Source of the DNA: Candidatus Doudnabacteria bacterium
GTDB taxonomy: Bacteria > Patescibacteriota > Doudnabacteria > UBA920
Length of the DNA stretch: 64,000 nucleotides
Assembly: GCA_963837465.1 (NCBI GenBank)
Contig: CAWINB010000001.1
Span: forward strand, 139,915 to 203,914
Direction: 5' to 3'
Below the pieces are notes generated by a model. It saw only the letters and a program-made list of their open reading frames with translations. It made no database searches and was not told the origin of the DNA. Below, in pieces: positions 1,968 through 57,907 of the stretch (within the stretch, counting starts at the first letter, position 1; every line of letters begins with the position of its first letter). Made by a program: the position numbers and the translations under genes.

Positions 1968-3356
1968 CTACCCCTGTTCCTCCGCGTTCATGCTCCCCAT
2001 AACCGTCTGCGGCGAAACGTCAAAAGTTTTATCCAGATTTTTAAATGATGTCTTGTCCGCGTCAAAGAACAAATCAATCTGGCCGGTGGGGCCGTTTCTG
2101 TGTTTTTTAATATGAATTTCCGCTATGTGCGGGCGCTGGGCATCCTTGCCTTTATACATTTCTTCGCGGTAAATGAACATAACCACGTCCGCGTCCTGTT
2201 CAATGGAACCGGATTCGCGCAAGTCCGCCAGCTGGGGAACTTTATCCGGACGGTTTTCCACTCCGCGCGACAACTGCGACAAAGCCAAAACCGGCACGTT
2301 TAATTCGCGCGCCAAAAGTTTCAGGGCCCGGGAGATTTCGGAAACCTCCTGCACGCGGTTTTCCTGGTTGCGTCCTTCCATTAGCTGCAAGTAGTCCACG
2401 ACTATCAGCCCGATATTATGCTCGCTGTGAAGCCGCCGGGCTTTGGTGCGGATTTCCATAATGTTGCTGCCCGCAGCATCGTCTATAAAAATGGGGGACT
2501 CGGACAATTCTCCCATGGCCTGTCCGATTTTTTCAAAATCGTCGTCATTTAAATTTCCGGTGCGGATTTTCCACAAATTAACATCGCTTTGGGAACTCAA
2601 TAAACGGTCAACTAATTGATCTTTGCTCATTTCCAGAGAAAAAATTCCCACCGGCGCTTTTAAATTTACGGCCACGTGGCGCATAATATCCAGCGCCAGC
2701 GAAGTTTTGCCCATAGACGGCCGGGCGGCCAAAATCACCAAATCCGATTTCTGCAACCCCCCGAGCAAATTATCCAAATCCACGTAACCGGTGGGCAGGC
2801 CGCGCAGCTTGCCTTTTTCGCGATGCAATTCGTCTATCCTTTCAAACGTGCTGTGCAGAATATTGCTGATGGAAATAAAATTCTGCTTGAGGTGTTTTTG
2901 GGAAATGTTAAACAATTTTTGTTCGGCCTGGTCTAAAATATCTTCAATCTCTCCTGCCTCGCCAAAACCCAAGTTGGTAATTTCGCCGGAGGCTTGGATG
3001 AGTTTTCTTAAGGTTCCTTTTTTGCGCACTATAAAAGCGTAGTGGCTGATGTGGGCGGCGCTTGGCACGCCGCTGACCAGCTGGGTTAAGTAACTGGCTC
3101 CGCCGACTTTTTCCAGCGTTTTATGCTCTTCCAGCCAGTTGGTGACGGTTAAAATATCCACGGAGGTATTTTTTTCGTACAAAGCCAGGGCGGCATCAAA
3201 AATTTGGGTGTGCCTTGGGTCGTAAAAATCATCGGACCTTATAACGTCGCCGATTTTTATAAACGCGTCTTTATCCAGCATCAAACAGCCCAAAACCGAC
3301 ATTTCGGCTTCCAGGCTTTGGGGCGGAATTCTTTGGATTGAAGTATTGTCCGGCAT
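1968..3356 (-). CDS. dnaB: Replicative DNA helicase DnaB
   Basis: Walker A ARPSMGKTSLAL, RecA-like C-terminal domain, DnaB N-terminal domain; 462 aa. Confidence 0.9.
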   Translation of the reverse strand: MPDNTSIQRIPPQSLEAEMSVLGCLMLDKDAFIKIGDVIRSDDFYDPRHTQIFDAALALYEKNTSVDILTVTNWLEEHKTLEKVGGASYLTQLVSGVPSAAHISHYAFIVRKKGTLRKLIQASGEITNLGFGEAGEIEDILDQAEQKLFNISQKHLKQNFISISNILHSTFERIDELHREKGKLRGLPTGYVDLDNLLGGLQKSDLVILAARPSMGKTSLALDIMRHVAVNLKAPVGIFSLEMSKDQLVDRLLSSQSDVNLWKIRTGNLNDDDFEKIGQAMGELSESPIFIDDAAGSNIMEIRTKARRLHSEHNIGLIVVDYLQLMEGRNQENRVQEVSEISRALKLLARELNVPVLALSQLSRGVENRPDKVPQLADLRESGSIEQDADVVMFIYREEMYKGKDAQRPHIAEIHIKKHRNGPTGQIDLFFDADKTSFKNLDKTFDVSPQTVMGSMNAEEQG

Positions 3357-15106: not shown

Positions 15107-16321
15107 CTAATCAGCGTTGTTTTCCAGGTATTTTTCCACAAACTCATCCAGTTCTCCGTTTAAGACGGATTCCGGGTCGGAGGTTTCCATTCCCGTGCGG
15201 TGGTCTTTGACCATTTTGTAGGGGTGGAGCACGTAACTGCGGATTTGGTTGCCCCATTCCGCGGACTTGAATTCGCCGCGGATTTCCTGTTTTTCTTTTT
15301 GCAGTTTTTGCTCTTCCAAAGTTTTTAGGCGGGACATTAAAATCTTCATAGCCAGTTCGCGGTTTTGGTGCTGGGAGCGTTCGTTTTGGATGCTGACTTT
15401 TATGCCGGAGGGGATGTGGGTTACGCGAATGGCCGAGTAGGTAGTGTTCACGCTTTGGCCGCCGTGGCCGCTGGCGGTGTTGGCTTCTATTTTCAAGTCC
15501 TTTTCATCCACCTTAAATTCCTCCTGTTGGTCCAAAAGCGGCAGCAGTTCCAAAAGCGCGAACGATGTCTCACGTGTATGCGCCGGATTAAACGGCGAAA
15601 GACGCACCAAGCGGTGCACCCCGGCCTCGCTTTTAAGCAAGCCGTAAGCGTACGGCCCGCGCGCTTCCACCACCGCGGTTTTTACGCCGCCCCTTTCGCC
15701 GCGCGACAGTTCAATAACGTCCGTGGAAAAGCCTTTTTTTTCACAATAGCGCAAAAACATCCGCAACAGCATATCGGCCCAATCCTGCGCGTCCACTCCC
15801 CCGGCGCCGGAATGGATGGAAAAGATGGCATTGTGATCGTCGTACTTTTTGCTTAATAAGGCAACAAAACGATTTTTACGATACAGAGTTTCCAGTTCAT
15901 CAAGTTTCTGTTTAAGATAGTCTTGGTCCGCGGGTTTTATACCACCTCCCCCCGCTTCGCGGGGTACTCCTCCTGTAAAAGGAGGAGAGCTCCGATGTTT
16001 ATCCCGGGATAACCGCGGAGCATCCCCTCCTGGTATAGGAGGGGTGGCCGCGTTAGCGGACGGGGCGGTAGAATCTTCCGCTAATTCCAAAGTCTCCTGA
16101 ACATCCTTTTCCAACCCCAGCCAAAAATCCACAAACTTTTTGAGCTGATTATATTCCTGGCTGACCTTTTGCGCGTTCTCGTTATCATTCCAAAAATCAC
16201 TTTCCCGCATCCTGCCTTCCATTTCCAAAATCCTCTGCTCCTTTTGCGGCAGGTTCAAATGGGATTTAAGATTTAAAATTTCCGATTTAAGGTTTTCTAA
16301 GCGCTTTATAAGGTCGTTCAT
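15107..16321 (-). CDS. prfB: Peptide chain release factor 2 (single continuous ORF, no +1 frameshift) carrying a ~40-aa low-complexity insertion
   Basis: SPF motif (RLSPFNPAH), GGQ motif (SGHGGQSVNTT); 404 aa versus ~365 typical; a GC-rich insertion lies in the inter-domain linker. Confidence 0.85.
   Translation of the reverse strand: MNDLIKRLENLKSEILNLKSHLNLPQKEQRILEMEGRMRESDFWNDNENAQKVSQEYNQLKKFVDFWLGLEKDVQETLELAEDSTAPSANAATPPIPGGDAPRLSRDKHRSSPPFTGGVPREAGGGGIKPADQDYLKQKLDELETLYRKNRFVALLSKKYDDHNAIFSIHSGAGGVDAQDWADMLLRMFLRYCEKKGFSTDVIELSRGERGGVKTAVVEARGPYAYGLLKSEAGVHRLVRLSPFNPAHTRETSFALLELLPLLDQQEEFKVDEKDLKIEANTASGHGGQSVNTTYSAIRVTHIPSGIKVSIQNERSQHQNRELAMKILMSRLKTLEEQKLQKEKQEIRGEFKSAEWGNQIRSYVLHPYKMVKDHRTGMETSDPESVLNGELDEFVEKYLENNAD
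15925..16080. repeat. GC-rich, multi-hairpin insertion inside the prfB reading frame
   Basis: Perfect hairpins ccccgcttcgcgggg, ctcctcctgtaaaaggaggag and cccctcctggtataggagggg in ~70% GC sequence embedded in ~40% GC coding DNA; encodes the ...PPIPGGDAPRLSRDKHRSSPPFTGGVPREAGGGG... stretch. Confidence 0.6.
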
Positions 16322-16411: not shown

Positions 16412-16609
16412 GGCTATTCATCGTGCATGCCGATGAATGGGCCTGTTGCCAAATGTCATTTTGGTTAAAAATTCATAATTTTGGTCATTCGACCAAAAAA
16501 ATTTATCAGCTTAACTAAAAGTTAAACGTCAAAATTTGTTTTGACCGACTGCCTCAAAATTCTTAATTTTTACCTCAAAAGCCCATTTGGCAACAGGCCC
16601 TGAATAGCC
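16412..16609. repeat. Long interrupted inverted repeat (ggctattca...gggcctgttgccaaatg / catttggcaacaggccc-tgaatagcc) enclosing ~125 nt; MITE-like or structured RNA
   Basis: 17 bp perfect plus 9 bp flanking inverted repeat read directly; lies between the stop of the thyX-like gene and the prfB start. Confidence 0.55.
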
Positions 16610-20760: not shown

Positions 20761-20777
20761 AGTGTTATCTCATGGCT

Positions 20778-20887
20778 TCCCATCCCGGAATTTTTCAGGG
20801 TTTTATCTGGAAAATATCCGGGATCCAGGTCGTCGCTTAGTTCTGAATCCCGGATATTTTTACAGCCCTAAAAATTCCGGGATGGGA
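20778..20887. repeat. Nested hairpin element (cccatcccggaatttttcaggg...ccctaaaaattccgggatggg with inner aaatatccgggat/atcccggatattt)
   Basis: Inverted repeats read directly; a half-copy recurs at 30736–30780. Confidence 0.55.
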
Positions 20888-20906
20888 ACACAACGCTTTG
20901 GCTTAT

Positions 20907-22234: not shown

Positions 22235-23987
22235 TTACGCAAACCCTCCCGCCTGTATCTGCCACAGTTTTTGGTAAGTCCCCTGCTCAACTTTCAGCAG
22301 TTCTTCGTGCCGGCCCTGCTCCGAAATTCTCCCGTTCTCCAACACCACAATCCTGTCCATTTGCATTATCGTAGATAGCCGGTGGGCGATGACCGCGACG
22401 GTTTTGCCGCTCATTAAATTTTTTAAAGCCTCCTGAATATACTGTTCGCTTTCGCTGTCCAAAGATGATGTGGCCTCGTCCAAAACCAAAATCGGGGCGT
22501 TTTTGAGTATTGCCCGGGCAATGGCCACGCGCTGGCGCTCGCCGCCGGAAAGTTTTACTCCCCGCTCCCCGACAAAAGTTTGGTAGTTTTGGGGAAATTT
22601 GGAAATAAATTCGTGGGCGCAGCGCCAGCCTGGCCGCCTGCAGAACCTCGTCGTCCGTGGCCGTCGGTTTGCCGTAACGGATATTTTCCATTAAGGAACG
22701 GTGGAATAAAATCGCCTCCTGCGGCACTAAGGCAATATTGGCGCGCAGGCTTTCCTGCGTGGCTTTGGCAATGTTTTGCCCGTCGATTAAAATTTCGCCG
22801 CCGTTAATGTCCACAAAACGCAAAAGCAATTTTACAATGGTGGATTTGCCGCCGCCGGAGGGGCCGATTAAAGCCACGCGTTCGCCCGGGTTTATTTTGA
22901 TGTTAAAATTTTCCAAAACCGGCGAATTATTTTCATAAGAAAAGCTGACATTTTTAAATTCCACCAGGCCTTTGGCCACTTTTAGTTCAAAGGCCTTGGG
23001 AGCGTCGGCGACTTCGTGCGGGGTTCGCAAAATCTCCGTCATCTCGTTGGCATCGGCCACGCTCTCATAAACGCGCCGCACAAAACGTCCAAAATTCCAG
23101 AGCTGGCTGAAAATCTGGATTAAGTAAGCTTGCAGCAAAGCAAAATCGCCAACAGTTAACTGGCCTTTTTTCCACAAAAGCACGGCGCCGTACATTACGC
23201 CGAATTCCAAAATTACCACCAAAAACCCCTGCACCGTTTCCGAAAGCGTGCCCAAATTCCAGCCCAGCCGCCTTAGCCGGAACAGCTCGTTGGTCTGGTC
23301 CTTAAAATCCCGCAGCTCTTTGCTAAAGCCGTTAAACAGTTTCAGGTTGATGTTGTTGCTCACGGTATCCGCCAGCTGTCCGCTGACTTTGGTATCCTGG
23401 GCGGCCCGCGCCACATCATATTTTATTTTCCAGATGGTAAAGCGGTAATTAAAATAAACGTAAATAGCCGACCAGATTAAAATTATCCAGGCCAAAGGCG
23501 GAAAATAAAAAAACAGCACGATGATTATGATGCCGATTTGCAGAGTGACCTGGCAGAGGTTTTGGAATAAAATATCGGCCAAATCCTCAAAGGTCCGGCT
23601 GTAGCGGTTGATTTTGCGCACCAGGCTGCCGGCAAAATTGTTGGAGAAAAAAGTATAGGAATGCTTTTGCATGTAGGCAAAGCAGGTGTTTAAAAGATCC
23701 GACATTACGCGGGCTTCGTACAAAGACAAAGCAAACCCCGAAAGCCTCCAGGCCGCCCAGGAGCCCAATCCCACCCAAAAAATCCACCAAACTATGCCAA
23801 GCATTTGCGGAACGGCAGATATATGGTTCGCTGCCAGCAAATTAAACAAATCCTTAAACAAAAACGGCTGATAAGTATCAAACCCCACCCCCACAGCCAA
23901 ACTCAAAAGCACCAAAGCCACAGTTTTGGCGTAAGGTTTAGAGTGTTCTTTGAATATGTTAAATGTCTGGCGGGTTAGGGACTGCAT
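22235..23987 (-). pseudogene. ABC exporter (fused permease and ATPase, MsbA-like) with a frameshift near 22610–22625
   Basis: The 566-aa ORF carries 6 TM helices plus Walker A (GPSGGGKST) and then runs into nonsense after QAARLA. The downstream frame continues correctly as [20 protein letters not shown]...[16 protein letters not shown]...VLDEATS...IAHRLST. Confidence 0.7.
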
Positions 23988-30480: not shown

Positions 30481-30735
30481 ATACCTTCATGGTAGCACAA
30501 AATTAATCCATATTCAAGCTAATTGGCGAAGGTCAATAGGAGATTGAACGGCATCGGATTTTCCAGCAGAGGGTGCTTAACATCAAGGAGAAAATTGACG
30601 TCAAAGATGTTGAGCTAAAAAGCTACACAAAATATGTGTTGGAGCATGGCAGTATTGTTGAGAAGCGGAATATTTTAAGCTGCTTAAAATCAAGACTAAT
30701 TTTTAAAGACAAAATTGTAACATTACTGTGATCTG

Positions 30736-30780
30736 GATCCCGGATATTTTTCAGATAAAGCCCTGAAAAATTCCGGGATG
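30736..30780. repeat. Half-copy of the 20778–20887 hairpin element (atcccggatatttttcag...ctgaaaaattccgggat)
   Basis: Near-identical to the right half of the 20.8 kb element; forms a hairpin. Confidence 0.5.
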
Positions 30781-45831: not shown

Positions 45832-46189
45832 TTTTGCACCCTGTTTTGTTTCTGTTTTTGGTTAGTTTTTAGTTTGGTATTTTAGTATATTTTTAGAGTA
45901 TATAGATAGTAGTATTTTAAGTATTTTAGTAGTTAGTATTTCTTTCCATTATTTTTCTTTGTCTGCCAGTGGAAATCGTGGTGATAGTCAAGGTTTGTGG
46001 TTTAAGAAAAGGTAATGGAATTAGGGTGTTTAGGAACTTTACTAGTTGAACCCGGATTCAACTAGCTGTTCAACTAGTTTGTACCCCCATTTTAAATCAA
46101 AAAACAGCCCTAAGCAAGAGCTGTTTTAGGGTAGCCAAGGTCAGCTGTTTTGGGTATAATAGGTTTGTAAAATATCGAATAAGGGTACC
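45832..46189. repeat. IR-b, copy B (inverted); overlaps the last 30 codons of the second recombinase
   Basis: Reverse complement of 33706–34061. Confidence 0.85.
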
Positions 46190-47703
46190 ATCGGCGATTT
46201 TAGAGCGGGTTGCAATCAGATCGAAGGGAGAACTCGGCGTGATCTCCAGGAGTTTTCCGTTCAGTACCCGGTTCGAGGTCAGAGAATCTACCATTTCGCG
46301 TTTTTCCGGCATGATGCCGACTTTGTACGCTGAATACGCGGTGTTCGCGCGTTCGAGAATTTCTAGCAGCTCATCGGCGACATTGCGGTTGCCGCTTTCC
46401 CAGCCAGAGAGTGTTTCCGACGTTTCCAGGCGCTCCGTGAGGAGCGCCGTTTTTCGTTGCTCGAACAGATCCTTTTCGACCAGCCGGTCGATGTAGGCAT
46501 CGGTGAGGCGGTTCAGCCGGTCGTCAATCTGGCCGAGCTTCAGCTTGAGGGCGGCGATGGCATCCTCGGTTTGCTTGTGACTGTCAGCTTTCAACCGGCG
46601 GAGTTCCTGCCAGCAGTATTGCTGCTCATCGGGAAGCAGCCGTAGTTGAAGGAGGGTTTCGAGAAATGAATTCTCGGCAACCTCTTCCCGGATCGCTGTT
46701 GTGGGACACTCGCGAGTTTGGCAGCGGTAGTAGACGAACCCCTTGTGAGTTTCGCCGATCAGGGTATGGCCGCAACCTTTGCAACTCAGCCTGCGGCGAA
46801 ACAGAAAATCATGGCGGTTGGTCCGCGTGTTGGTTTTTCCGTGGAGCACATCCTGGACGCGCTGAAAGAGCGCCTTGGAGATTAGAGGCTGGTGAGCTCC
46901 GAGGAAGGACTGACCGGAAACCTTGATGTGGATGAGGCCCATGTAGAAAGTATTGTTCAGCAATTTGGTCAGGCCGTTCATGGTGACCTGCTTGCCACTG
47001 CGCCCGCGCAAGCCGATGCGTTCGGCTTCGTGAAGTAGATCGTGAAAATTGGCCGTGCCGGTGGAATACTTTTCAAACAGATGGCGCACCAGGGGCGCAG
47101 TCTTGGGGTCTGGCTCCTTAGGTTTGCCGCTGCTGATGTTCCGATACCCCAGCGGGGCTGGCATGGGCAATATGCCTTGCTTGAGCCGTCCATAGAATCC
47201 CTTCTTGGTTTCTTCTTTGAGGTTGCGGATGAAATCGGATGCCACAACCGCTTGGATGTCCGCCGAGAGTCGTCCGCCGCGAGAATTGAGGTCCAGACCT
47301 TCGTTGGCGAAGTGGACTTCGACGCCACGGTCGATGATTTCGCCGAGGTCAGCCCAATCCTTGAGGTTGCGGGCGGAGCGGTCGATCTTGTGAATGACCA
47401 CACCGCGAACCGTGCCAGATCTCAGCCGCCTGATCATCTGGGTGAACACCGGGTGTCGGACGGCAAGAGGAAGCCATCACAGTCCCAGCAATCCGGCGTA
47501 GTCGCTCCGGGTGGCAACACGTACGGGGAAGTATCGAAAATAGACCGCTCCCTCTCATGCTTCGGGCCGTAAACGACCAAGTGCTCTGCGGTCTGATTTG
47601 TGCACTGGCCCCAGCCGCGTCCGCGGAGAATACGGAATGGCGGACGAATCAGGTCTCCATAATCCAGATCGAACAACAGCATGTCCTCCGCTCGGCACTT
47701 CAT
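46097..47703 (-). pseudogene. Second large serine recombinase with a disrupted N-terminal catalytic region
   Basis: The 450-aa ORF (46097–47449) starts inside the resolvase domain (GVVIHKIDRSARNL) and keeps the recombinase, zinc-ribbon (C..C...C...C) and coiled-coil parts. The upstream catalytic segment is scattered across three frames (...VRVATRSDYAGLLGL* ; ...DCDGFLLPSDTRCSPR*). Confidence 0.55.
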
Positions 47704-47754
47704 GCTTCGCTCTCAGATCACCGATCATATTGCTACGGACGAGTCGTCGCGTGG

Positions 47755-48471
47755 CTAAGGTTGCCACCGCCAGTTGGACCGGTATACATCAACGACGCCA
47801 AATTCTTTACCTGGGCTCCAACTACGTGACTCCCACATGAGCTGGCGAGCGCTACCGCCAAATTTACTACTGTCCAACATCACGTCGAATACTGCCTTGG
47901 TAATGTATGTAGAGAAGCCGACCTCCCGGATCGCGCTGAGCTTCGCCGCAATGTTCGGGGCTCGGCCTACCCACACCAGATCATTATTATTGCGAATTCC
48001 GCTCCGAACTACCATTATTTTGCTCGTGTCTATGCCAACGGTTTGACTCAATGGCAGGCCAGAGGGAAACGACCCCTTATAGAACGCATTAAATTCCGGG
48101 GTCAAAATTTGATTAAAAAAATAATTGATCTTGAGGCCCGCTTCGACCGCGTTCGTATTTTTCGCGCCCTCGATAAAGACGCCCATAACCCGGTCACCGT
48201 CAAAGCTTCGAATCTCACCCCCCAGCGCACGAATAATTCTCGTAGTGCCCATTAGATACGCCTTGAACACTTCAGCCGCGACCGACTGGTTAGCAATGGC
48301 CAGCCGAGTGGAGTCGTGCAGATCAGCATAAACGAAGGTAGCATCCAGGTTGACGCCCTCGTTGCCAAGGGCGAGGTCTTCGGTCTCAGGAACCACCGTC
48401 CCGTCCCGGCGTGTCCAGGCATCATGGACGACTTTGGCGGTTTCATTCTTAAGATCGTCGAGAAGAGTCAT
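47755..48471 (-). CDS. Class III nucleotidyl cyclase (CHD) domain protein, candidate Pycsar PycC-like cyclase
   Basis: Motifs ATFVYADLHDST and GDRVMGVF typical of the adenylyl/guanylyl cyclase catalytic domain; ~238 aa from the internal Met; one-nucleotide gap to the upstream TM gene. Confidence 0.55.
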   Translation of the reverse strand: MTLLDDLKNETAKVVHDAWTRRDGTVVPETEDLALGNEGVNLDATFVYADLHDSTRLAIANQSVAAEVFKAYLMGTTRIIRALGGEIRSFDGDRVMGVFIEGAKNTNAVEAGLKINYFFNQILTPEFNAFYKGSFPSGLPLSQTVGIDTSKIMVVRSGIRNNNDLVWVGRAPNIAAKLSAIREVGFSTYITKAVFDVMLDSSKFGGSARQLMWESRSWSPGKEFGVVDVYRSNWRWQP

Positions 48472-48472
48472 A

Positions 48473-48988
48473 TTAGTGAAATAGGGTTGAACGGGTTGGA
48501 GCTGTATACGCCGCAAATAACGCGAGCGCGGCAAGCCATGGAAGGAGAGCCAGCGCGAGAAACGTGAAGGCCGCTTTTAGCGCATCAAACTTTGCTGTCA
48601 GTATTTCCGAATTCCGCCACACCTGTGCCAAGAGATCGTTAACGTGCCCGTCTTCATTCTGCTGCTTGAATTGTTCGATAAAGTGGTGCTCCGTACGACC
48701 TGCTATCTGTCGAAAATAAACCAAGGACGAATTGCCTCCCTTAAGACTGGGGAATGCGCCACGATACAAAAACACAATGCTCACGCCCAAGAGAACCACA
48801 CAGATACCGGCGGACGTTGACATCGGCCAGGTTAACGCTTTGAGTGGTGGTGCGTCGGTAGCCAACACGGCTAACATTCCCGTATCTACCGCGAGTATCA
48901 CAGAAAGCTTTGAATCTACACGCGGGAAAAAGCTCAATACTCGATCGAGTTGATCTTTGCTCGCAGCGTATATAGTTTCAGTCTTCAT
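48473..48988 (-). CDS. Small transmembrane protein (2 to 3 TM), candidate cyclic-nucleotide-activated effector
   Basis: 171 aa; hydrophobic helices at ~30–75 and 140–165; translationally coupled to the cyclase. Confidence 0.45.
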   Translation of the reverse strand: MKTETIYAASKDQLDRVLSFFPRVDSKLSVILAVDTGMLAVLATDAPPLKALTWPMSTSAGICVVLLGVSIVFLYRGAFPSLKGGNSSLVYFRQIAGRTEHHFIEQFKQQNEDGHVNDLLAQVWRNSEILTAKFDALKAAFTFLALALLPWLAALALFAAYTAPTRSTLFH

Positions 48989-49153
48989 ATAGGCTTGGGG
49001 CGCAGCCTAGCAAATGCGTCTGCGCAGTAAATATGTTAAATTGCGCTCAGACAAAAGATATTATTAGAATCATAACTCTCGAATTCCGAGGCGTCAAGAA
49101 CTCAAGGCCGCATATTTGAAAGGCGAACTCGCTCGAAGTCCCGCTGGGTTCAC

Positions 49154-49477
49154 TCATGTCCGAGGAATAAACACGCCGAAAATCTTTACGATGTCCGAAC
49201 GTTCAAGCGGCTTGTCGGTCAAGTTGAACACATGCATGATGGTCGACCAGTGACACGCGAGGTTGTCCGCGAGCAACTGGGCTTGAGTGGCGAATGGCTC
49301 AAAGGGCACGCTGCGACGACTCAGAGCCGAGACACGCGTTTCAGCCAAGTGCCACTGGCCATATAGATCCTCGGGAGGACGCACGAGGACCAGATTCCAG
49401 CCTTCCCGATCCCGCGCGTTTTCGTTGATCTCAATATAACCACCATGTGCGACATGACGCCGCTCCAAAGTTGTCAT
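49154..49477 (-). CDS. Hypothetical protein (107 aa), operon gene 3
   Basis: Start overlaps the stop of the upstream gene. Confidence 0.4.
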   Translation of the reverse strand: MTTLERRHVAHGGYIEINENARDREGWNLVLVRPPEDLYGQWHLAETRVSALSRRSVPFEPFATQAQLLADNLACHWSTIMHVFNLTDKPLERSDIVKIFGVFIPRT

Positions 49478-49893
49478 CCTGCCAGGAACAATAGGATTTG
49501 CAAACAGCTCGCCACGATGAAAGAACCGGACACGTAAGGCCCGCCCACCAAAGCGGTATTTTTTCCGTCCGCAGCGGTAGCTGTGACGATCTTGGTTTCC
49601 GCGAGATGCCTATTGATCTCCTCGACGATCTCGTCAACCATCGCAATCAACTCCTCTTCTTTGTATCGATTCCTAGCAGCCGTGTCCCTTTCGGACTTCG
49701 CAATCCGCTGCTGCTCAAGTGTCGCCGCTTCGACCGCGTCGTGGTGTTGGCGCATCCTGGCGGCTAGCGCACCGATGGCGGATTCCCTTGGGGCCGGAGC
49801 AGTCTCCAGGCATCCAGAACCTCCCGCGCTGTTTGGTGACGGGCACGCGGATCCTTGGTCAAGAGCCTCTTGCCCAACTTTCCGGTTAAACAT
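49474..49893 (-). CDS. Hypothetical protein (139 aa), operon gene 2
   Basis: Overlaps the downstream gene by 4 nt (translational coupling). Confidence 0.4.
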   Translation of the reverse strand: MFNRKVGQEALDQGSACPSPNSAGGSGCLETAPAPRESAIGALAARMRQHHDAVEAATLEQQRIAKSERDTAARNRYKEEELIAMVDEIVEEINRHLAETKIVTATAADGKNTALVGGPYVSGSFIVASCLQILLFLAG

Positions 49894-49941
49894 TCACCAA
49901 TCATAAGATTTTTCTAAAAGATAGCAGCACAAGGCCCGACG

Positions 49942-51015
49942 TCAATCCCCCCTTTCGGCGCCGCCATCGAAACAAACACTGCCGTTCGAAGCCAGGGTAT
50001 CTCTAAAGTATGTTGCCAGATCGGCATTCCACACGAAGAAAGCCTGTGCTATAAGGCTGAAGGCGTCGCGATCAATCGGCTCGTCGATCCTGAAGATTTT
50101 CATCCGTACTCCGGTTTTCCCGAGTTTTCTGAGATGATCTTTCTGCCGTTCTTCAAATTGCTCGCCGTTGTAAATCCTCAGCGCCCCGTCGAAATGCGTA
50201 ATGGATTGGCTGCCCGGATCGTAAATCGCGTGAAGGTAACGGGCACCGGCGAATGGGATACGATCCCTGGGTGGAAGCTCCTCACAGACGAAATGGATTC
50301 CATCGCCACGTGGGCTCCAGCAGAATTCGGTAACTTGACTCCTGTCCCACGGCTTATCGGCCCGCATTTGCCCGAAGTGCTGTTCTCTCAATCGACCTAT
50401 GTCGTTCCAGGTCAGCGGCGCGGCATACACAATCATCTTGTACATGGTCTGCGGGAAAGAATCGCACGGACCCCAAAGAAATGGGTCGAGCCGGACGCTG
50501 ACGGAATTGGCGACACCCTGCTCATAAAACGACCGTAGTAGCCAATAAGTTGAATTGGGAGATTCGGTAGTTGTACAGACCGTGAAGTCGAACCCGTTGG
50601 CCTCAAGGGTTGAATTGTTGTAACTAAACTCCGCCAGTCTGACCATACCTTCACCATCCACGGTGACGCCGCGCAGACAATCGGCGGTGTAAGGTAGTGT
50701 CTGCGCGGAAGAGAAGGTTTCCGCTAGGATCTCCAATCGGCGGCGCGCCGCTTCATTGGTGAGGAGCGCATCTGCGACCCAGATCCGTGCAAGGCGTTCA
50801 TTCTTTCCGTGAAGTGCAAGGAAGGTCGGGTCCTGGAAGGCGGCCTCGACCGCCTTCGTCGGCAAACTCGAAAGTAACCGCGACAGGTCGGGATACAGGG
50901 ACCACGTCGACTCATTTGAGTTTTTAAGCAATTTGTCGAACGGGGCGAGCGGATCGGAAGCAAAGTCGCGCACGAGATCTTCCGGAAGCTTCACCCGTAT
51001 CCCATTGAACTGCAT
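49942..51015 (-). CDS. Hypothetical protein (357 aa), first gene of an unknown three-gene operon
   Basis: High GC; no recognised motif. Confidence 0.4.
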   Translation of the reverse strand: MQFNGIRVKLPEDLVRDFASDPLAPFDKLLKNSNESTWSLYPDLSRLLSSLPTKAVEAAFQDPTFLALHGKNERLARIWVADALLTNEAARRRLEILAETFSSAQTLPYTADCLRGVTVDGEGMVRLAEFSYNNSTLEANGFDFTVCTTTESPNSTYWLLRSFYEQGVANSVSVRLDPFLWGPCDSFPQTMYKMIVYAAPLTWNDIGRLREQHFGQMRADKPWDRSQVTEFCWSPRGDGIHFVCEELPPRDRIPFAGARYLHAIYDPGSQSITHFDGALRIYNGEQFEERQKDHLRKLGKTGVRMKIFRIDEPIDRDAFSLIAQAFFVWNADLATYFRDTLASNGSVCFDGGAERGD

Positions 51016-51199
51016 AGTCTTCTTGCCTTTCTAGTTCCAGCATATCCTGGACGCGTCCCGCTGTCCAGAAGAGCTCTAAACGGCAGTTCAACATCGCGTT
51101 TGTCGATACCTCCATCGAACACGCCCGTTCATTTGACAAGACTTCTAGGGCGGACCATTATATAAGTAGAATTAGAATATCTATTAACGTCAGCGTTTT

Positions 51200-51649
51200 A
51201 TGGTCGCTCTCGAATTTACATTAGGACACGTACACCTCAAGGTGAAAGACGTTGAAAGGGCAACTGCCTTCTATACAAATGTTTTCGGGCTTAAGGTTGC
51301 CGAGCGGGTCGGCAACTATGTATTCCTCTCGTTTGGCCAGAGGTATCATCACGACTTGGCCATACACGAAGTTCCGGCGGACGCGGCAGTGCCCGGCCTT
51401 AAAGATGTAGGCCTTTATCATTTTGCCCTTGAAGTTGCCGACATTCGGCAACTCGCATTGTTGTACCGCAAGCTAAAGCAATTAAATGTGGCCGTCAAGC
51501 CGGTTGATCACGGAATCAGCAAGGTGATATATTTCAGCGACCCCGACGGCAATGGCATAGAGGTCTACGTTGACACACGAAGTGAAACCGGACAGCAGGA
51601 ATGGCAAGGAAAATCCACGCCGCTAAACCTTGAGGATGTCATGGTGTGA
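51200..51649 (+). CDS. VOC (glyoxalase / bleomycin-resistance / dioxygenase) superfamily protein
   Basis: HVHLKVKDVERATAFYTNVFGL...HHDLA...HFALEV pattern. Confidence 0.7.
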   Translation: MVALEFTLGHVHLKVKDVERATAFYTNVFGLKVAERVGNYVFLSFGQRYHHDLAIHEVPADAAVPGLKDVGLYHFALEVADIRQLALLYRKLKQLNVAVKPVDHGISKVIYFSDPDGNGIEVYVDTRSETGQQEWQGKSTPLNLEDVMV

Positions 51650-52428
51650 GAAGAAAAACTGTAATAAACCTCGCCACCGGCCTTGGCTTTTTTGGGTTTT
51701 CTACCCTATCTGGCTGGGCGCTTCACTCGCCCGTCGCGGCACTCGTAACGGGTTTCGGCATTGTAATCATCCGTCTTCTAGTAGACATCAGGCTGAATCT
51801 ACATACAAAGATTCCGGTGGAGGTATCTTTCCTCAATAGCTACACTAAGCTGCGAGAGAGCCAATGTGAACTCTTTCGGGAGGCGGCAGCCGTAAAGCTA
51901 CGGTCTGTGACTGCCTACTTCGACAGTTTGGCAGGTGGCCATTTGCCGGTTGACAATCAGAATGAGGTCTTCGATTTACTTGAGCTTTTGTTCTGTGACA
52001 TTGATTTTGTAAGACAAATTCGTACGACTAGCTTTGGGGAAATTGAAGAGTGGGGAAATTGGTGGGGCAAGCGATATTTGGGTATCCACAAAGAGGCGAA
52101 GAAGAGAGGAGTGAAGGTACATCGCGTTTTCATCCTTCAGTCCGACGACGACGTTCAGGCGGGAGCCGATATCATGCGCGCCAACGCTGCTGAGGGCGTG
52201 GCGGTAAAGTATGTATCGCGGCGTGTGATTTCTCTGGGAGATTTCAATACCGGCAACAACTGTATGCTGTTCTATGACCGAAACGGGGTTCCAGTATATG
52301 CTCTCACGGCCGTGCACGACGAAAAAGGCGGATTTTTGGCAGCGATAATCTATAACGACGCAGCCCACATCAAACCCGTAGTTGATGCATACAGCCATAT
52401 CGATGCCCTTGCCGTCGAGTTTAGATAA
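51646..52428 (+). CDS. Hypothetical membrane protein (260 aa); start overlaps the VOC gene stop
   Basis: N-terminal TM segments; unknown C-terminal domain. Confidence 0.4.
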   Translation: MRRKTVINLATGLGFFGFSTLSGWALHSPVAALVTGFGIVIIRLLVDIRLNLHTKIPVEVSFLNSYTKLRESQCELFREAAAVKLRSVTAYFDSLAGGHLPVDNQNEVFDLLELLFCDIDFVRQIRTTSFGEIEEWGNWWGKRYLGIHKEAKKRGVKVHRVFILQSDDDVQAGADIMRANAAEGVAVKYVSRRVISLGDFNTGNNCMLFYDRNGVPVYALTAVHDEKGGFLAAIIYNDAAHIKPVVDAYSHIDALAVEFR

Positions 52429-52479
52429 CGGTGGACTTGGGACAAGCTTGTCCACCGTCTCGCAGAAAAAATGGACTTC

Positions 52480-52700
52480 CCGCCAAGTTTTCCCTCCTAT
52501 ACAAACCTTTAAGTTCTGCTATTCTATCTTTGCCACGATCAAAGCCGCCGAGCGGGGTGCTGGCCGCGCGGCAGGCTTGATCGATGAGCAAACTCATGCC
52601 GCAATCTTTTCTTTCGACTCTTGTTTGCGTTGGAGCAAATCCATTATCGCGGGCAGAAGGCGCTTCCACGTTCGATGTATGTCCCGTCTCGGGCTACCAA
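52480..52700. repeat. R-family ~230 bp repeat, copy 1 (core ctattctayctttgccacgatcaaagc...gcttccacgttcgatgtatgtcccgtctcgggctacca)
   Basis: Copies at ~55195–55430, ~59085–59345 and a truncated one at ~60105–60235. Confidence 0.75.
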
Positions 52701-52874
52701 AATGATTCAGCAGCGTAAAGCTGCTGTTTTTATTTGCTAAAACGATTCAAGGAAAACGAACCATGCGGAGGGAGAAATTCCGGTCCGCATATTTAAAAGG
52801 CAAAATCGTTCGATTCCCCAATGGGGTCGAAATTAATTCCAGTAAGTAAGAACACAATACGGGCGACATCTTAG

Positions 52875-54290
52875 TTACTTAGCGACCGCCATCAGATTGC
52901 TTGGCGGGGGGAGTGTGGAGGGTGACGTAGAACCTTTTACCATCGCATCTGTGATAATCAAAGAACTACATGTAGACCCTGGGCACGTTAGGAGCGACGC
53001 AGGCACCGGAAACGCATCGGTAAATACGTAGCCCAGTGAAGTAAATGCCGTAGCAGTAGCGAAACCCGCAATTTGACCGTCCGACACGACATAATAGGTG
53101 CTATTGGTTGCGCATCCGTGCCCGCTCGAATCGAGAGTGCAAAGAATCGAACCTTCGCGATATGGCAACGTATAGTTCCGGAACGTTGGATCTTCCAGCA
53201 ATGTGGCCGTCGACTGTTGTTGTATATCACTCCAGCGAAATCCCACGCCGTCGAATATCAATTGTGACGTGATACCTCGCTTATAATGCTGATCGGTTAC
53301 CTCGTAGATGGTACCGCCATCATTCACCAAGAACGCTGCCGGCGGCGGCCCTAACAGACTTCCTTGGGGAAGCGCCTGAATCTCTTGAAGCCCCACACTT
53401 ATGACTTTGCCGAAATCAAAGCCGTACGCGTAGAACACGGCGGGCGACGGTATCCCGCGAAGTTTACCGGCCTGTATGAGGTACACCGTGCCATTGTAAG
53501 AAACCAGCGAACCGTCGGGGTGCCAGATTACGTTTGGCGCGGCCGTTCTCGCCGGTGCCCAAAGAGTGGTGCTTCGGACTGTCCTCGGGTCCAGATACCT
53601 CCCTTGCCACCCATAGGGGTCAACCGGAACTCCGTTATAGCGTACCTCGAAGTGGAGGTGCGGGCAGGGAGAGTCCGTGGTACAGACTCCAACGCTACCG
53701 CTAACCCCGATCATATCTCCTGCGCTCACTGCCCGTCCTTCGACGGTGTTTGGATCAACCCAACTGGAGAGGTGCAAATAATATGTTTTATAGCAATTGC
53801 CATGGTCAATGTAAAGTGCATGGCAGCACTTTTCACCGGTATCCACGTGCAGTGTGCCGCTGGCGGCGGCATAGACTGGTATTTCGCCACTAGGGTCCTG
53901 ATCCGTAGTTTTGTAATCGATTCCGGGGTGCCCATCATAGTTGAGAAATGTTGGCGTGCCCGCGCCGATATACTGTCCGTTTATCACGAAAGGGATTCCA
54001 GGCATGTTCTGAAAGGAGAAGAACGTTTGGCCGTTGATCGTCGTAGCATACTCGGGATTTAGATTGGCCAACTCGCCGGTGAATCCAATCACCACGTTGT
54101 CAGATGTGTAGGAGTTGGTCATGGAGTGATCCATGACCGAGTTGATGCTCGCGGAATAGGCGGTTCTGTTTGGCAAGGGGAACTTTGACAAGTAGAACGC
54201 TGAAGAGGGTTGCGAGGGGCAGGTAGACTGAGCAAGGAGCAGTACGTCTGCGTGCAGTGCGCAAATCGCGAAACAAAGCCAAAAACGCAT
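52875..54290 (-). CDS. Secreted M23 (LytM) family metallopeptidase
   Basis: Signal peptide (MRFWLCFAICALHA); HPGIDY...D and HLHFEV zinc-binding motifs. Confidence 0.8.
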   Translation of the reverse strand: MRFWLCFAICALHADVLLLAQSTCPSQPSSAFYLSKFPLPNRTAYSASINSVMDHSMTNSYTSDNVVIGFTGELANLNPEYATTINGQTFFSFQNMPGIPFVINGQYIGAGTPTFLNYDGHPGIDYKTTDQDPSGEIPVYAAASGTLHVDTGEKCCHALYIDHGNCYKTYYLHLSSWVDPNTVEGRAVSAGDMIGVSGSVGVCTTDSPCPHLHFEVRYNGVPVDPYGWQGRYLDPRTVRSTTLWAPARTAAPNVIWHPDGSLVSYNGTVYLIQAGKLRGIPSPAVFYAYGFDFGKVISVGLQEIQALPQGSLLGPPPAAFLVNDGGTIYEVTDQHYKRGITSQLIFDGVGFRWSDIQQQSTATLLEDPTFRNYTLPYREGSILCTLDSSGHGCATNSTYYVVSDGQIAGFATATAFTSLGYVFTDAFPVPASLLTCPGSTCSSLIITDAMVKGSTSPSTLPPPSNLMAVAK

Positions 54291-54408
54291 GGTAACTCCA
54301 GTTGCCACCAGCGTACTACAGGCCTCGCCGAAAATCAAAGGGGCTCCCCGCTCCGCCCTACCCATCAGACCAGCAAGCTTGACCGGCTCTCCGACGTTTG
54401 TAATAATG

Positions 54409-55070
54409 CAATGGCTTCAATAATTAATCTGATTGTTCTAATGAAGAGGTACTTGTTTATCTTTGTAATGAGCTGTCTTTCTGCGGGTTGCAGTCGGGTA
54501 AACGTGGCGACAAATGAACCGGCGGTTCAGCCCGACGTTCGACTGAACCCGCCCCGGAACGCTTCTAAATCGCCGGTCAGCTTGATGGGTGTAACAGCCA
54601 ATGGCACCACTACGCAGGACTCTCAACCCGGCGATTGGACTACATACACGGACACTGCTTATGGCTTTAGCCTGAACATTCCAGCCGGATACGTTTATGC
54701 CACGTCGACAGCGGAGCGCGGATGGTCGCCTGTGCTAATTGTCTACGACCCAGAGAATTTACCCATAGCCAGTGAGCCAGCTGTTACTGTTTATGTTTCA
54801 ACAATCACTAGCAAGGAGCAGGAATCGCCTTCTTATCTGCTTCAGCAAGAAGGCATACCCCCGGCAGCGGCTACAGTCACCCCAACAAGGTTTGCGGGAT
54901 GCCTAGCCACCCAAATTATTATCGAGAACACGGACGGAGGATACCCGGTTGAGGACCAGATGTTCGTAGCCCACGACGGTCTTGAATATTCAATCAGATA
55001 TACCGCGCGCGACAATACGACATTCGCAAGGATTGCTTCGTCCTTTGTATTCCTCGCAACTGGTTGTTGA
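54409..55070 (+). CDS. Putative lipoprotein (lipobox LSAGC)
   Basis: Signal peptide plus lipobox; the 3' 240 nt is duplicated at 59751–59987. Confidence 0.5.
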
Positions 55071-55282
55071 CTCTTAGCTTGATACTCCGCTTCACCTTCA
55101 AAGGATGATGGCGTTTTCGTGGGGTTGAGTCCGATTAGCCCAGAGCGAAAAGAATTGGCAAGAGCTCAAGATATCCACCGAGCGGGTCAATTCTTGGAAG
55201 TTGAGCCAATGTTTCCCTCCTTTGCAAGCGTCTGAGTTCTTGCTATTCTACTTTTGCCACGATCAAAGCAGCCGCGCAGGGT
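54835..55282. repeat. ~448 bp direct repeat, copy D1 (3' end of the lipoprotein gene plus downstream R repeat)
   Basis: Near-identical to 59751–60199 apart from a diverged ~70 nt patch. Confidence 0.8.
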
Positions 55283-55430
55283 GCTGGCCGCACGGCATGC
55301 TTGATCGAGGAGAACCATTTAGGCCGCAATCTTTTCTGTAGACTCTTGTTTGCGTTGGAGCAAGCTCAGCATCCTGGGCAGAAGACGCTTCCACGTTCGA
55401 TGTATGTCCCGTCTCGGGCTACCAGGAATC
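55195..55430. repeat. R-family repeat, copy 2
   Basis: See copy 1. Confidence 0.7.
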
Positions 55431-55650
55431 CCATTCAACTTTTCCCTCCCTAAAAGAAGAATTCACCCGCAGAAATGCGGGTTTTTCATTGGCGCAGATT
55501 CAGCCCTTGGCCAGAATTGTCCACAGGCCATTGGGGAATCGAACTGACAGGCGGTTTCCCGCATGGGAAAGCGTAGTAGTGGTGCAGATTTGACACCCAC
55601 ACAAAAGGTGTGTAAACTACAAATATAAGATCATTAACCTAGAAACTTCC

Positions 55651-55920
55651 ATGAGCAAACGTATTAACATCATGCTGCCGGAAAGAACCCTGGCCGTGCT
55701 GGACCGGGTGGCTTCCAAAGGCAACCGCAGCCAGTTTGTGTCTAGGGCCGTGCTCCACTACGTGGAAATCCAGGGCAAACAAAGCCTGCGCCAGCAGCTT
55801 AAAGCCGGCTATATGGCCAATGCCGATGAGAACCTAAAGATTGCCGCGGAGTGGTTTCCCCTTGAGGAACAAGCATGGCAAAAGTCCCGCACCAGCCAAA
55901 AGGCCAAAAGCAAAAAGTAG
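55651..55920 (+). CDS. Ribbon-helix-helix (CopG-like) antitoxin
   Basis: KRINIMLPERTLAVLDRVASKGNRSQFVSRAV is the RHH fold signature. Confidence 0.7.
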   Translation: MSKRINIMLPERTLAVLDRVASKGNRSQFVSRAVLHYVEIQGKQSLRQQLKAGYMANADENLKIAAEWFPLEEQAWQKSRTSQKAKSKK

Positions 55921-56273
55921 AAGGCATCCGAAGGGGTGAAGTCTACCTCTGCTCTTTTGACCCGACGGTCGGCCACGAAATCAAGAAGACCCGGCCCGCC
56001 CTGGTCGTCCAAAACGATGTCGGCAATCGCTATGGTCCCCTGACGATTGTCGCGGCAATCACTTCCAGCGTTTCCCCTGTCCCCTATCCGGTCGAGGTTG
56101 TCGTTGAACCGACCGCCGCCAACGGCCTGGATGTCCGCTCTTCCGTTCGCCTGGACCAGATCCGCACCATAGACCGGCAGCGCCTGATTCGTCATTTGGG
56201 CGTAGTGGATTCCGCCACCATGGCCAGGGTCGATGAGGCCATCAAGATTAGCTTGGGGCTGATTAGAGTTTAG
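55875..56273 (+). CDS. MazF/PemK-family endoribonuclease toxin
   Basis: RGEVYLCSFDPTVGHEIKKTRPALVVQNDVGN is the PemK/MazF signature; overlaps the antitoxin gene. Confidence 0.8.
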   Translation: MAKVPHQPKGQKQKVEGIRRGEVYLCSFDPTVGHEIKKTRPALVVQNDVGNRYGPLTIVAAITSSVSPVPYPVEVVVEPTAANGLDVRSSVRLDQIRTIDRQRLIRHLGVVDSATMARVDEAIKISLGLIRV

Positions 56274-56278
56274 TATCT

Positions 56279-56995
56279 ATGTCGATTCACTCATTGGTCC
56301 CGGACGCGCCGACGCTCCTTGCCCTTGAACCGGAAGAACTCGCAGGCGTAGTGCTGCAATATCTAAACTCGCTACCGCCCGACGCCTCTGAGTTAAACCG
56401 ACACAACTTCAGTTTGCCCCATACGGTTCAGGAGTATCCCAGGGAATATCAGCGACAGTTGAGGAGCGCACTTATGGAAGCCTGGGTATGGCTGGAGCGG
56501 GAAGGACTTATCGCTCCGAACCCAGAACAAGGCACTGATTGGCGGTTTATTACAAGGCGCGGCCGACTACTGAAGACGGCGCCCGAGGTCGCGGCATACC
56601 GGAAGGCCGAGATGCTGCCAAAGGCGCTCTTGCATCCTACTATCGCGACTAAGGTTCATGCGGCCTTTCTGCGCGGCGAATATGACACTGCCGTATTTCA
56701 GGCTTTTCGAGAAGTCGAAATCGCCGTACGCACCGCCGGCAAGTTTAAGGCCACGGACCTTGGAGTGGATCTAATGGATAAGGCCTTCAACAAGACCAGC
56801 GGCCCGTTAACGGATTTGGCCGTCCCCGACAGTGAACGAGAAGCGACGCGGCTCATGTTTCGAGGCATAATCGGTCGTTACAAAAACCCTCATAGCCACC
56901 GGGCCGTGGCAATCATTGATCCGTCCGAAGCCATCGAACTCTTGATGCTGGCCACGCATTTACTCCGCATCATTCAGGCCGCCGCCGTGGCTTAG
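56279..56995 (+). CDS. Hypothetical protein with an Abi-associated (TIGR02391-like) C-terminal domain
   Basis: C-terminal FRGIIGRYKNPHSHR resembles the conserved motif of the TIGR02391 abortive-infection-associated family; tentative. Confidence 0.35.
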   Translation: MSIHSLVPDAPTLLALEPEELAGVVLQYLNSLPPDASELNRHNFSLPHTVQEYPREYQRQLRSALMEAWVWLEREGLIAPNPEQGTDWRFITRRGRLLKTAPEVAAYRKAEMLPKALLHPTIATKVHAAFLRGEYDTAVFQAFREVEIAVRTAGKFKATDLGVDLMDKAFNKTSGPLTDLAVPDSEREATRLMFRGIIGRYKNPHSHRAVAIIDPSEAIELLMLATHLLRIIQAAAVA

Positions 56996-57009
56996 CAGGA
57001 ATTAACCTT

Positions 57010-57879: not shown

Positions 57880-57907
57880 AATATTAAACTTCCTACACAG
57901 AGGCAAT

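Follow-up and report, generated by a model that had tools for sequence, protein, structure and literature searches.

Why does one bacterial release factor carry a loop of some 44 residues that most of its close orthologs lack? The protein is peptide chain release factor 2 (RF2), the product of prfB in a 64,000-nucleotide (nt) stretch of contig CAWINB010000001.1 from a Candidatus Doudnabacteria bacterium (hereafter the window). An initial annotation of this DNA had noticed a GC-rich, hairpin-filled insertion in the gene and likened it to the palindromic elements of Rickettsia. Here, we delimit the insert, place it in the RF2 fold, describe its relatives in metagenomic DNA, and weigh explanations of its origin and maintenance. 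We consider it very likely that the insert is a complete copy of a non-autonomous, multi-hairpin palindromic repeat that landed in frame in a domain-1 loop of an ancestral RF2, is read through and tolerated there, and persists as an immobile relic of a family whose permuted form may be copied by a DUF559 nuclease.

The ends of the element were set from an alignment of 17–20 copies. The initial annotation had given the insert as 15925–16080; it had found the right place, and the exact ends are 15939–16070. The gene and the parts of the element, with stem and loop sequences read on the minus strand, are as follows.

15107..16321, minus strand: prfB, encoding RF2 of 404 amino acids (aa), assigned from the list of open reading frames (ORFs) and matches in Pfam and the PDB
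15939..16070, minus strand: full-length palindromic repeat element in the doublet form, 132 nt or 44 codons, 63% GC, recognized by profile match and copy alignment
16061..16070, minus strand: left terminal inverted repeat TACCGCCCCG (family consensus TACCACCCCG), pairing with the right terminus in the consensus structure
16047..16060, minus strand: hairpin E, TCCGC-TAAC-GCGG(C), its stem sequence free in the family and always paired
16024..16046, minus strand: hairpin A, CA-CCCCTCC-TATACCA-GGAGGGG, nearly invariant across the family
15989..16021, minus strand: central hairpin D, GCTCCGCGG-TTATCCCGGGATAAACAT-CGGAGC, found in one subfamily, other copies having ACTGCAGCTGCAGT
15967..15988, minus strand: hairpin B, T-CTCCTCC-TTTTACA-GGAGGAG
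15950..15966, minus strand: hairpin C, TA-CCCCGC-GAA-GCGGGG, which includes the mini-hairpin motif GCGAAGC
15939..15949, minus strand: right terminal inverted repeat GGAGGTGGTAT, Shine-Dalgarno-like

The window prfB is one uninterrupted ORF, with no programmed +1 frameshift. Its product contains the Pfam domains PCRF (3e-43) and RF-1 (2.7e-36) and a GGQ region (...SGHGGQSVN...), and matches solved RF2 chains in the PDB at 8e-89. We compared it with the 120 closest RF2 proteins, which come from Patescibacteria and have Candidatus Doudnabacteria as the nearest named group. Most of these orthologs are 360–366 aa long, in line with the initial estimate that the window protein has about 40 residues too many. 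BLASTP alignment with a 361-aa ortholog (P0005, 77% identity) leaves a single gap of ~45 aa at RF2 residues 85–129, and once the 44–45-aa block is removed the window protein aligns without gaps to the 361-aa orthologs. The element would be translated as about TAPSANAATPPIPGGDAPRLSRDKHRSSPPFTGGVPREAGGGGI, and the extra peptide is indeed rich in proline and glycine, as had been noted (8 P, 8 G and 6 A of 45 residues). The predicted peptides crossing its two junctions are SSPPFTGGVPR and EAGGGGIKPADQDYLK.

In an AlphaFold2 model, the insert is coil with a predicted local distance difference test (pLDDT) score of 43–53, lying between two confident helices at residues 47–85 and 130–156; the site corresponds to about residues 80–85 of Thermus thermophilus RF2. 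The insert thus sits between two long helices in a loop of domain 1, at the tip of a helical hairpin, and not in the linker between domains 1 and 2 to which it had been assigned.

At the level of DNA the insert stands apart from its surroundings. The region is 62–63% GC, somewhat below the initial figure of about 70%, against 48% in the rest of prfB and 47% in the window. The three hairpins first quoted are exact on the plus strand (ccccgc-ttc-gcgggg at 15950–15964, ctcctcc-tgtaaaa-ggaggag at 15967–15987 and cccctcc-tggtata-ggagggg at 16024–16044), and the motif CCTCC-N3-9-GGAGG occurs twice in the 64 kb, both times in the insert, where 0.24 occurrences were expected. A 166-nt RNA fold reaches −84.2 kcal/mol (z = −5.7, 0 of 200 shuffles as good), and the 132-nt element folded as single-stranded DNA reaches −42.7 kcal/mol (z = −6.05 against shuffles). 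The predicted fold of the whole segment is a single long imperfect hairpin carrying the local hairpins, and the region ranks in the top three 150-nt segments of the window for structure once GC is corrected for.

The element recurs far beyond prfB. We scanned metagenome contigs with a pattern, TACCCCGCG-N2-4-GCGGGGGGAGG, that represents hairpin C and the right end with 20 specified bases. The scan returned 83 stretches, nearly all with hairpin B directly upstream although it was absent from the pattern; 38 of them also matched a longer 37-nt motif, and 17 copies could be aligned end to end. In canonical order, a copy consists of the left terminus TACCACCCCG or CTCCAACCACCCCG, hairpin E, hairpin A (CACCCCTCC-loop-GGAGGGG), a centre that is either ACTGCAGCTGCAGT or a hairpin GCTCCGCGG...CCGCGGAGC, hairpin B (CTCTCCTCC-loop-GGAGGAG), hairpin C (TACCCCGCG-loop-GCGGGG) and the right terminus GGAGGTGGTA or GGAGGTGGTTGGAG. 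The architecture is thus one of terminal inverted repeats, TACCACCCCG...GGAGGTGGTA, around four or five hairpins, with termini that read TACCACC...GGTGGTA or CTCCAACCACC...GGTGGTTGGAG and with no transposase gene in the element. The two halves pair with each other, terminal repeat with terminal repeat and the arms of hairpin E with those of hairpin C. Copies are 106–166 nt long, with at most three pattern matches and six profile hits per contig (both strands counted).

The window copy is a complete member of this family, with all canonical parts including the central hairpin. It matches the family profile in nhmmer with a score of 95.7 (E = 1.5e-27), shares its hairpin E sequence with a copy in an alanyl-tRNA synthetase (AlaRS) gene (L141) and its hairpin D centre with five other loci (L162, L109, L098, L146 and L166), and is 72–84% identical to copies in unrelated genes. 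The profile also matches L001, a close relative considered below, and the loci selected by the pattern. It found no match in L002–L087, about 1.4 Mb retrieved for RF2 genes, and viral contigs gave no element match. At the protein level, a search with the insert peptide returned one candidate with shared words and none that scored. Simple CCCCTCC-loop-GGAGGGG hairpin units were present in intergenic DNA of relatives. In the window, neither blastn-short, pattern searches allowing mismatches nor the nhmmer profile revealed a second copy, so the search for further hairpin modules proposed at the outset returned the prfB locus only.

Most full-length copies lie within genes. ORFs with at least 25 codons on either side span 27 of 31 such copies, and, on metagenome contigs independent of one another, elements stand in frame in genes of no fewer than 16 unrelated protein families. 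Hosts confirmed by Pfam are PolA, where the element falls between the 5'-nuclease and 3'-5' exonuclease domains; GrpE, IleRS, AlaRS, ArgRS, MnmA, a Mur ligase and Dus; RecG, in reverse orientation; a family-2 glycosyltransferase (GT2), WecG/TagA and the O-antigen-ligase-like Wzy_C; and RimK-like, Pyr_redox_2 (thioredoxin-reductase-like), PseudoU_synth_2 (pseudouridine synthase) and DUF6580 proteins. For RF2, PolA, GrpE, MnmA, AlaRS and the Mur ligase, two independent contigs each carry an element at the same site. One sense frame of the element is nearly always free of stops (0.15 stops per copy, against about 1 in each of the other two), and similar peptides recur in unrelated hosts: TTPSANAATPP in the PolA and AlaRS copies and the near-identical TAPSANAATPP in RF2. 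Judged from these sequence relationships, the initial suggestion of a palindromic element inserted in frame appears right, the insert being a full-length member of a dispersed repeat family.

The folded structure, rather than the peptide, is what the copies have in common. In an alignment of 20 copies (A3), with a consensus structure consisting of a terminal stem around hairpins E, A, B and C, 96.9% of cells are paired, and sliding the 3' partners lowers pairing to 51–65%. Cells changed on both sides number 46, a count that none of 500 shuffles reached (18.7 ± 2.9). Three pairs of the hairpin E stem covary, with both sides changed in 7–10 of the 20 copies, and the fourth is C-G in 19; hairpin C has two independent compensatory variants, CCCTGCG..CAGGG (L098) and CCCAGCG..CTGGG (L142). 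Because termini and stems are conserved or covary while the copies are read in different frames, the constraint acts on the nucleic acid and not on the protein. In three of six orthologous gene pairs, moreover, conservation is higher in the element than in the coding DNA on either side (92% against 63–66%, 96% against 77–83% and 87% against 78–80%). This pattern suggests that the element is recognized as a fold or a duplex, that its copies undergo gene conversion, or that insertion occurred repeatedly; it does not suggest selection on the peptide.

A second RF2 gene separates the inheritance of the DNA from that of the peptide. L001, an independent Joint Genome Institute (JGI) contig from a separate assembly, encodes an RF2 with 81% identity to that of the window, has thyX upstream of prfB as the window does, and carries a homologous element at the same codon position. 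The block from hairpin B through hairpin C to the right end is 94% identical in DNA, yet it is read in different frames, as SPPFTGGVPREAGGGG in the window and SPPLQEEYPAIAGGGG in L001; the DNA is therefore conserved and the peptide is not. From the same element at the same site we infer inheritance from a common ancestor, with later divergence of the centre, hairpin E and reading frame. The spacer between thyX and prfB differs in the two loci. Just upstream of the prfB start, the window has a 162-nt inverted-repeat element (16439–16600) with an AT-rich interior and ends GGGCCTGTTGCCAAATG / CATTTGGCAACAGGCCC, which resembles a miniature inverted-repeat transposable element (MITE) of another family than the prfB element; in L001 a 171-aa ORF takes its place.

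The loop that received the element is itself variable. Additional sequence occurs at this position in 33 of the 120 closest orthologs and is of several unrelated types. In the seven loop-insert orthologs for which DNA was retrieved (L001–L007), every insert forms hairpins (z from −1.7 to −6.4); that of L005 is a 22-bp hairpin of unrelated sequence. The inserts of L002 (3127–3213) and L003 (740–822) are a simpler doublet, ACCCCTCCCTAA, hairpin, CTGCAG, hairpin, CTAGGGGAGGGT, which has the CTGCAG centre and A/B-type hairpins of the main element without hairpins E and C, and of which an intergenic copy lies at L006 4360–4393. L036 carries two copies of a ~150-nt MITE-like element (700–880 and 3180–3340), with a central hairpin unit identical over 21 nt to the RF2 insert 'NPHPDPLP...KGEG' of L004. 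Dispersed repeats are therefore also the source of the simpler RF2 inserts seen in other lineages. The alternative raised at the outset, a homologous insert of ordinary composition shared across the lineage, does not describe these genes: most orthologs have no insert and the others carry unrelated hairpin-forming types. Since orthologs vary freely in length at this position, RF2 appears to tolerate the insert. A neighbor-joining tree of the 120 RF2 sequences was too poorly resolved to count gains and losses.

How might such an element move? A second arrangement of its parts offers a candidate. In this permuted form, TGCAGT or CGCGGAGC is followed by hairpin B, hairpin C and GGAGGTGGTA, then by an interior that is either an AT-rich spacer of 15–25 nt or a gene, and then by TACCACCCCG, hairpin E, hairpin A and ACTGCA. 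The permuted form is mostly intergenic (10 of 11), and the doublet mostly intragenic. Where a gene is present, it encodes a DUF559 protein of ~116 aa (PF04480, 5e-26 to 8e-35), with a start codon 3–10 nt past the Shine-Dalgarno-like right terminus. The longer version of the element is the one that carries the DUF559 gene, and the short-spacer versions look like its deletion derivatives.

DUF559 genes occur at 9 of 83 element-selected loci, against 1 of 80 comparison loci, mostly distant RF2 loci, among the matches listed in a protein scan of genome contigs. Among 81 element-adjacent ORFs, DUF559 is the only recurrent family, with six members; unrelated families have at most two, and five of the six DUF559 neighbors also match MTES_1575, a related model of restriction-endonuclease-like type whose hits overlap those of DUF559 on these proteins. 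No transposase family, Y1 and RAYT-like families included, was among the 25 most frequent families in these ORFs, single-member families beyond these having been left uninspected. L001 and L006 contain degraded DUF559 genes with inverted hairpin units on both sides. In L081 (12880–13460, Candidatus Wirthbacteria), the DUF559 gene is intact and lies between inverted hairpin units of variant sequence, CCCTCTCC...GGAGAGGG plus CAGGGTGAGGTA, so the link reaches distant Patescibacteria lineages. To our knowledge, DUF559 is not a known transposase. Two sources place it, together with Vsr and a homing endonuclease from a group I intron, in the PD-(D/E)XK superfamily (PMC3424549; PMC9403480). Because the permuted form often encloses its gene, the DUF559 nuclease is a candidate for the mobilizing enzyme.

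Fixed sites seem to exchange one palindrome for another. At an intergenic site upstream of an L11-like gene, L009 has an unrelated multi-hairpin palindrome, GTAGAGCC...GGCTCTAC (48–125), and the orthologous site holds a permuted element in L096 (10052–10175) and L129 (1244–1367). The comparison suggests turnover of palindromic elements at fixed sites; since the L009 site is itself occupied by another palindromic element, no target-site duplication can be read from it. Different palindromes in the same RF2 loop and at the same intergenic site across lineages suggest, as a speculation, that palindromic sites attract further palindromic insertions.

From these observations we propose the following course. 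The element would have landed in frame at the tip of the helical hairpin of RF2 domain 1, in an ancestor common with the L001 lineage, and would since have been carried within prfB, the ribosome reading through it and adding 44 Pro/Gly/Ala-rich residues that are predicted to be disordered. The family would exist as two arrangements of the same two half-units, the doublet within genes and the permuted form between them. The DUF559 nuclease of the permuted form, Vsr/EDxHD-like with a PD-(D/E)XK fold, may recognize the folded ends and drive copying. The window copy would be an immobile relic, because there is no other copy and no DUF559 gene within the 64 kb, and it is probably inherited, translated and tolerated.

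Several points weigh against this course of events. Translation of the insert is deduced from continuity of the ORF, and transposition itself was not observed. The window holds one copy. Whole-element identity between the window and L001 is 64–68%, below the value for the flanks, owing to differences in the centre and hairpin E. The contexts of the copies are a biased sample, since the best-conserved module served as seed for the metagenome scan, and most element-bearing contigs are only loosely tied to Patescibacteria: L096 and L129 lie near Doudnabacteria-type loci, and other element contigs match various Patescibacteria best. No empty site was found in a close relative, so that no target-site duplication can be defined; most copies have TA at both ends, which may be part of the repeat. 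Finally, the association with DUF559 is positional, and the hairpin units could serve that gene as terminator, ribosome-binding site or homing site and not be the substrate of its product.

Of the competing explanations, the one that fares best concedes a mobile origin and holds that the 44-aa Pro/Gly loop has since been put to use, contacting the ribosomal stalk region or a partner. In its favor, domain 1 faces the L11 region in ribosome-bound release factors, and the insert has been kept in two lineages whose RF2 proteins are 81% identical. Set against this are the different frames in which the window and L001 read part of their shared DNA, the predicted disorder of the segment, and the unrelated peptides, or none, of other lineages. 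We regard a gained function of the peptide as improbable.

A regulatory RNA selected within prfB appears somewhat less probable still. The insert could act in cis as a translational pause or roadblock, or stand in for the +1 frameshift autoregulation that this prfB, without a frameshift site, does not have. An mRNA structure of −84 kcal/mol, strong Shine-Dalgarno-like GGAGG motifs within the ORF, and unrelated hairpin-forming inserts at the same prfB position in other lineages would all suit such a role. The same element, however, sits in many functionally unrelated genes and in intergenic DNA, so its conserved features are not specific to prfB, and most close orthologs have no insert at all. 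Nor does the element match an Rfam family at gathering scores; generic long-hairpin models (miRNA precursors) alone appear at the E-value threshold, far under their cut-offs.

Removal of the element before the protein matures, as an intron-like RNA or an intein-like peptide, is suggested by a compact, covarying multi-hairpin fold in which the terminal stem brings the flanks together. A spliced element would not need an open frame, however, and in 27 of 31 full-length copies the host frame continues without a stop. Nor does any intein or intron family in Pfam or Rfam match the insert. This explanation strikes us as very unlikely.

Less credible again is an origin in place: an RF2 loop particular to this lineage, lengthened for example by slippage or by replication errors that generate palindromes, with no mobile or dispersed stage. 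Variation in loop length in 33 of 120 orthologs would agree with such growth. Templated synthesis was first hinted at because TCCGCTAA in the insert is complementary over 8 bp to TTAGCGGA, native sequence upstream of it. We rejected that route: TCCGCTAA is a segment of hairpin E in its canonical form and recurs unchanged in the AlaRS copy L141, which makes the match a coincidence. Growth in place would also leave unexplained why an element of 110–165 nt with the same termini and hairpin order turns up between genes and within those of at least 16 other protein families.

The GC contrast with the rest of the gene (63% against 48%) might point to misassembly or to foreign DNA joined to prfB, but this explanation has a negligible chance of being correct. 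The insert keeps the frame exactly, the independent L001 assembly carries the homologous element at that codon position, again with thyX upstream of prfB, and dozens of contigs from different projects show the same layout.

The reading that we prefer thus remains that of a dispersed palindromic repeat inherited in prfB. By analogy, it can be extended to a broader and tentative proposal, to which we would give less than even odds: that DUF559 proteins are the mobilizing or homing enzymes of multi-hairpin repeats, in a partnership like that of RAYT and REPIN with an unrelated enzyme; that doublets have colonized essential genes in frame across the streamlined Patescibacteria; and that existing palindromic inserts attract new ones. 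DUF559, a large orphan family, would thereby gain a concrete and testable role as a repeat-element partner. The elements can persist even in very small, streamlined genomes and would add disordered loops to core proteins such as a release factor, DNA polymerase I and aminoacyl-tRNA synthetases. They would account for a puzzling class of Pro/Gly-rich 'insertions' in the predicted proteins of Candidate Phyla Radiation (CPR) genomes. Such insertions make proteins look more divergent than they are and can mislead both alignment and structure prediction; the element profile could flag them automatically in annotation.

Other features of the window lie outside this family. A near-perfect 112-nt palindrome between dut and a kinase-like ORF (20777–20888; RNA fold −75.7 kcal/mol, z = −9.1) has a partial second copy 10 kb away (30730–30780, 94% identity over 51 nt), and the two constitute a second palindromic repeat family of this genome, unrelated in sequence to the prfB element. 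On the minus strand at 22235–23987, overlapping ORFs of 566 and 97 aa resemble one MsbA-like ABC-transporter gene with a frameshift near 22530, which is either a pseudogene or a sequencing error. Across ~12 kb at 46000–58000, GC climbs from about 44% to 52–54%; the region may be acquired, and Rfam finds no rRNA in it.

Searches of the literature with REP and MITE terms found no description of such elements in Patescibacteria/CPR, nor of the element sequences or peptides. Several known systems share parts of the design. Intragenic MITEs of bacteria include QMITE1 of Coxiella (PMC5896051) and ERIC, BOX and Nezha (PMC10969869). Like them, the element is small, non-coding as an element, folded and bounded by terminal inverted repeats, and sometimes fused in frame with host ORFs; it differs in that its intragenic share (27 of 31 doublets, in a biased sample) is far above what is usual for MITEs. 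Apart from a target duplication and a parent insertion sequence, it fits the loose definition of a MITE; no insertion sequence with a recognized transposase was found as parent among the 25 most frequent families of the 81 neighboring ORFs.

Homing endonucleases of the Vsr/EDxHD/DUF559 kind are described as free-standing or intron-borne (PMC3424549; Taylor et al. 2011, cited in PMC9403480). The gene between the element ends belongs to PF04480, which these sources place with Vsr and the group I intron enzyme. Here, however, the DUF559 genes lie within a short palindromic repeat and not in an intron or intein. We know of no homing site or activity for these genes.

The REPIN-RAYT system and bacterial interspersed mosaic elements (BIMEs) are built from doublets of repetitive extragenic palindromic (REP) sequences mobilized by a REP-associated tyrosine transposase (RAYT), the gene of which is flanked by REPs (PMC3116915, PMC3337134). 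The parallel is close in form: a short hairpin-forming unit, inverted doublets that form a long hairpin in both head-to-head and tail-to-tail order, and a small nuclease gene between inverted units. REPs and REPINs are extragenic, however, whereas the doublet here is mostly intragenic, and the linked gene is a Vsr-like PD-(D/E)XK DUF559 and not a Y1/HUH RAYT; for these reasons we do not assign the element to REPIN-RAYT. Nor was a GTAG or CGTC tag seen in it.

The closest counterpart is the Rickettsia palindromic element (RPE; Ogata et al. 2000), summarized in PMC10969869 as a repeat of about 150 bp that often lies in frame in unrelated genes and is considered compatible with the host fold. On that description, both are dispersed palindromic repeats of about 100–150 bp that sit in frame in unrelated, often essential genes, would yield on translation an additional surface peptide that the host fold is judged to accommodate, and have intragenic copies without a transposase. 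The differences are the host, here Patescibacteria/CPR and not Rickettsiales; a GC-rich composition in a genome of about 46% GC; the termini TACCACC...GGTGGTA with four or five separate covarying hairpins; and the permuted intergenic form with its recurrent neighboring DUF559 nuclease gene. The window element may be said to work like an RPE by likeness of design. Its hosts are Patescibacteria-like, with Candidatus Doudnabacteria as the nearest named, which makes both membership in the families RPE-1 to RPE-10 and common descent unlikely. In-frame palindromic selfish DNA in essential genes has largely been treated as a peculiarity of Rickettsia; the repeats described here would be an independent and structurally more elaborate family in the Patescibacteria.

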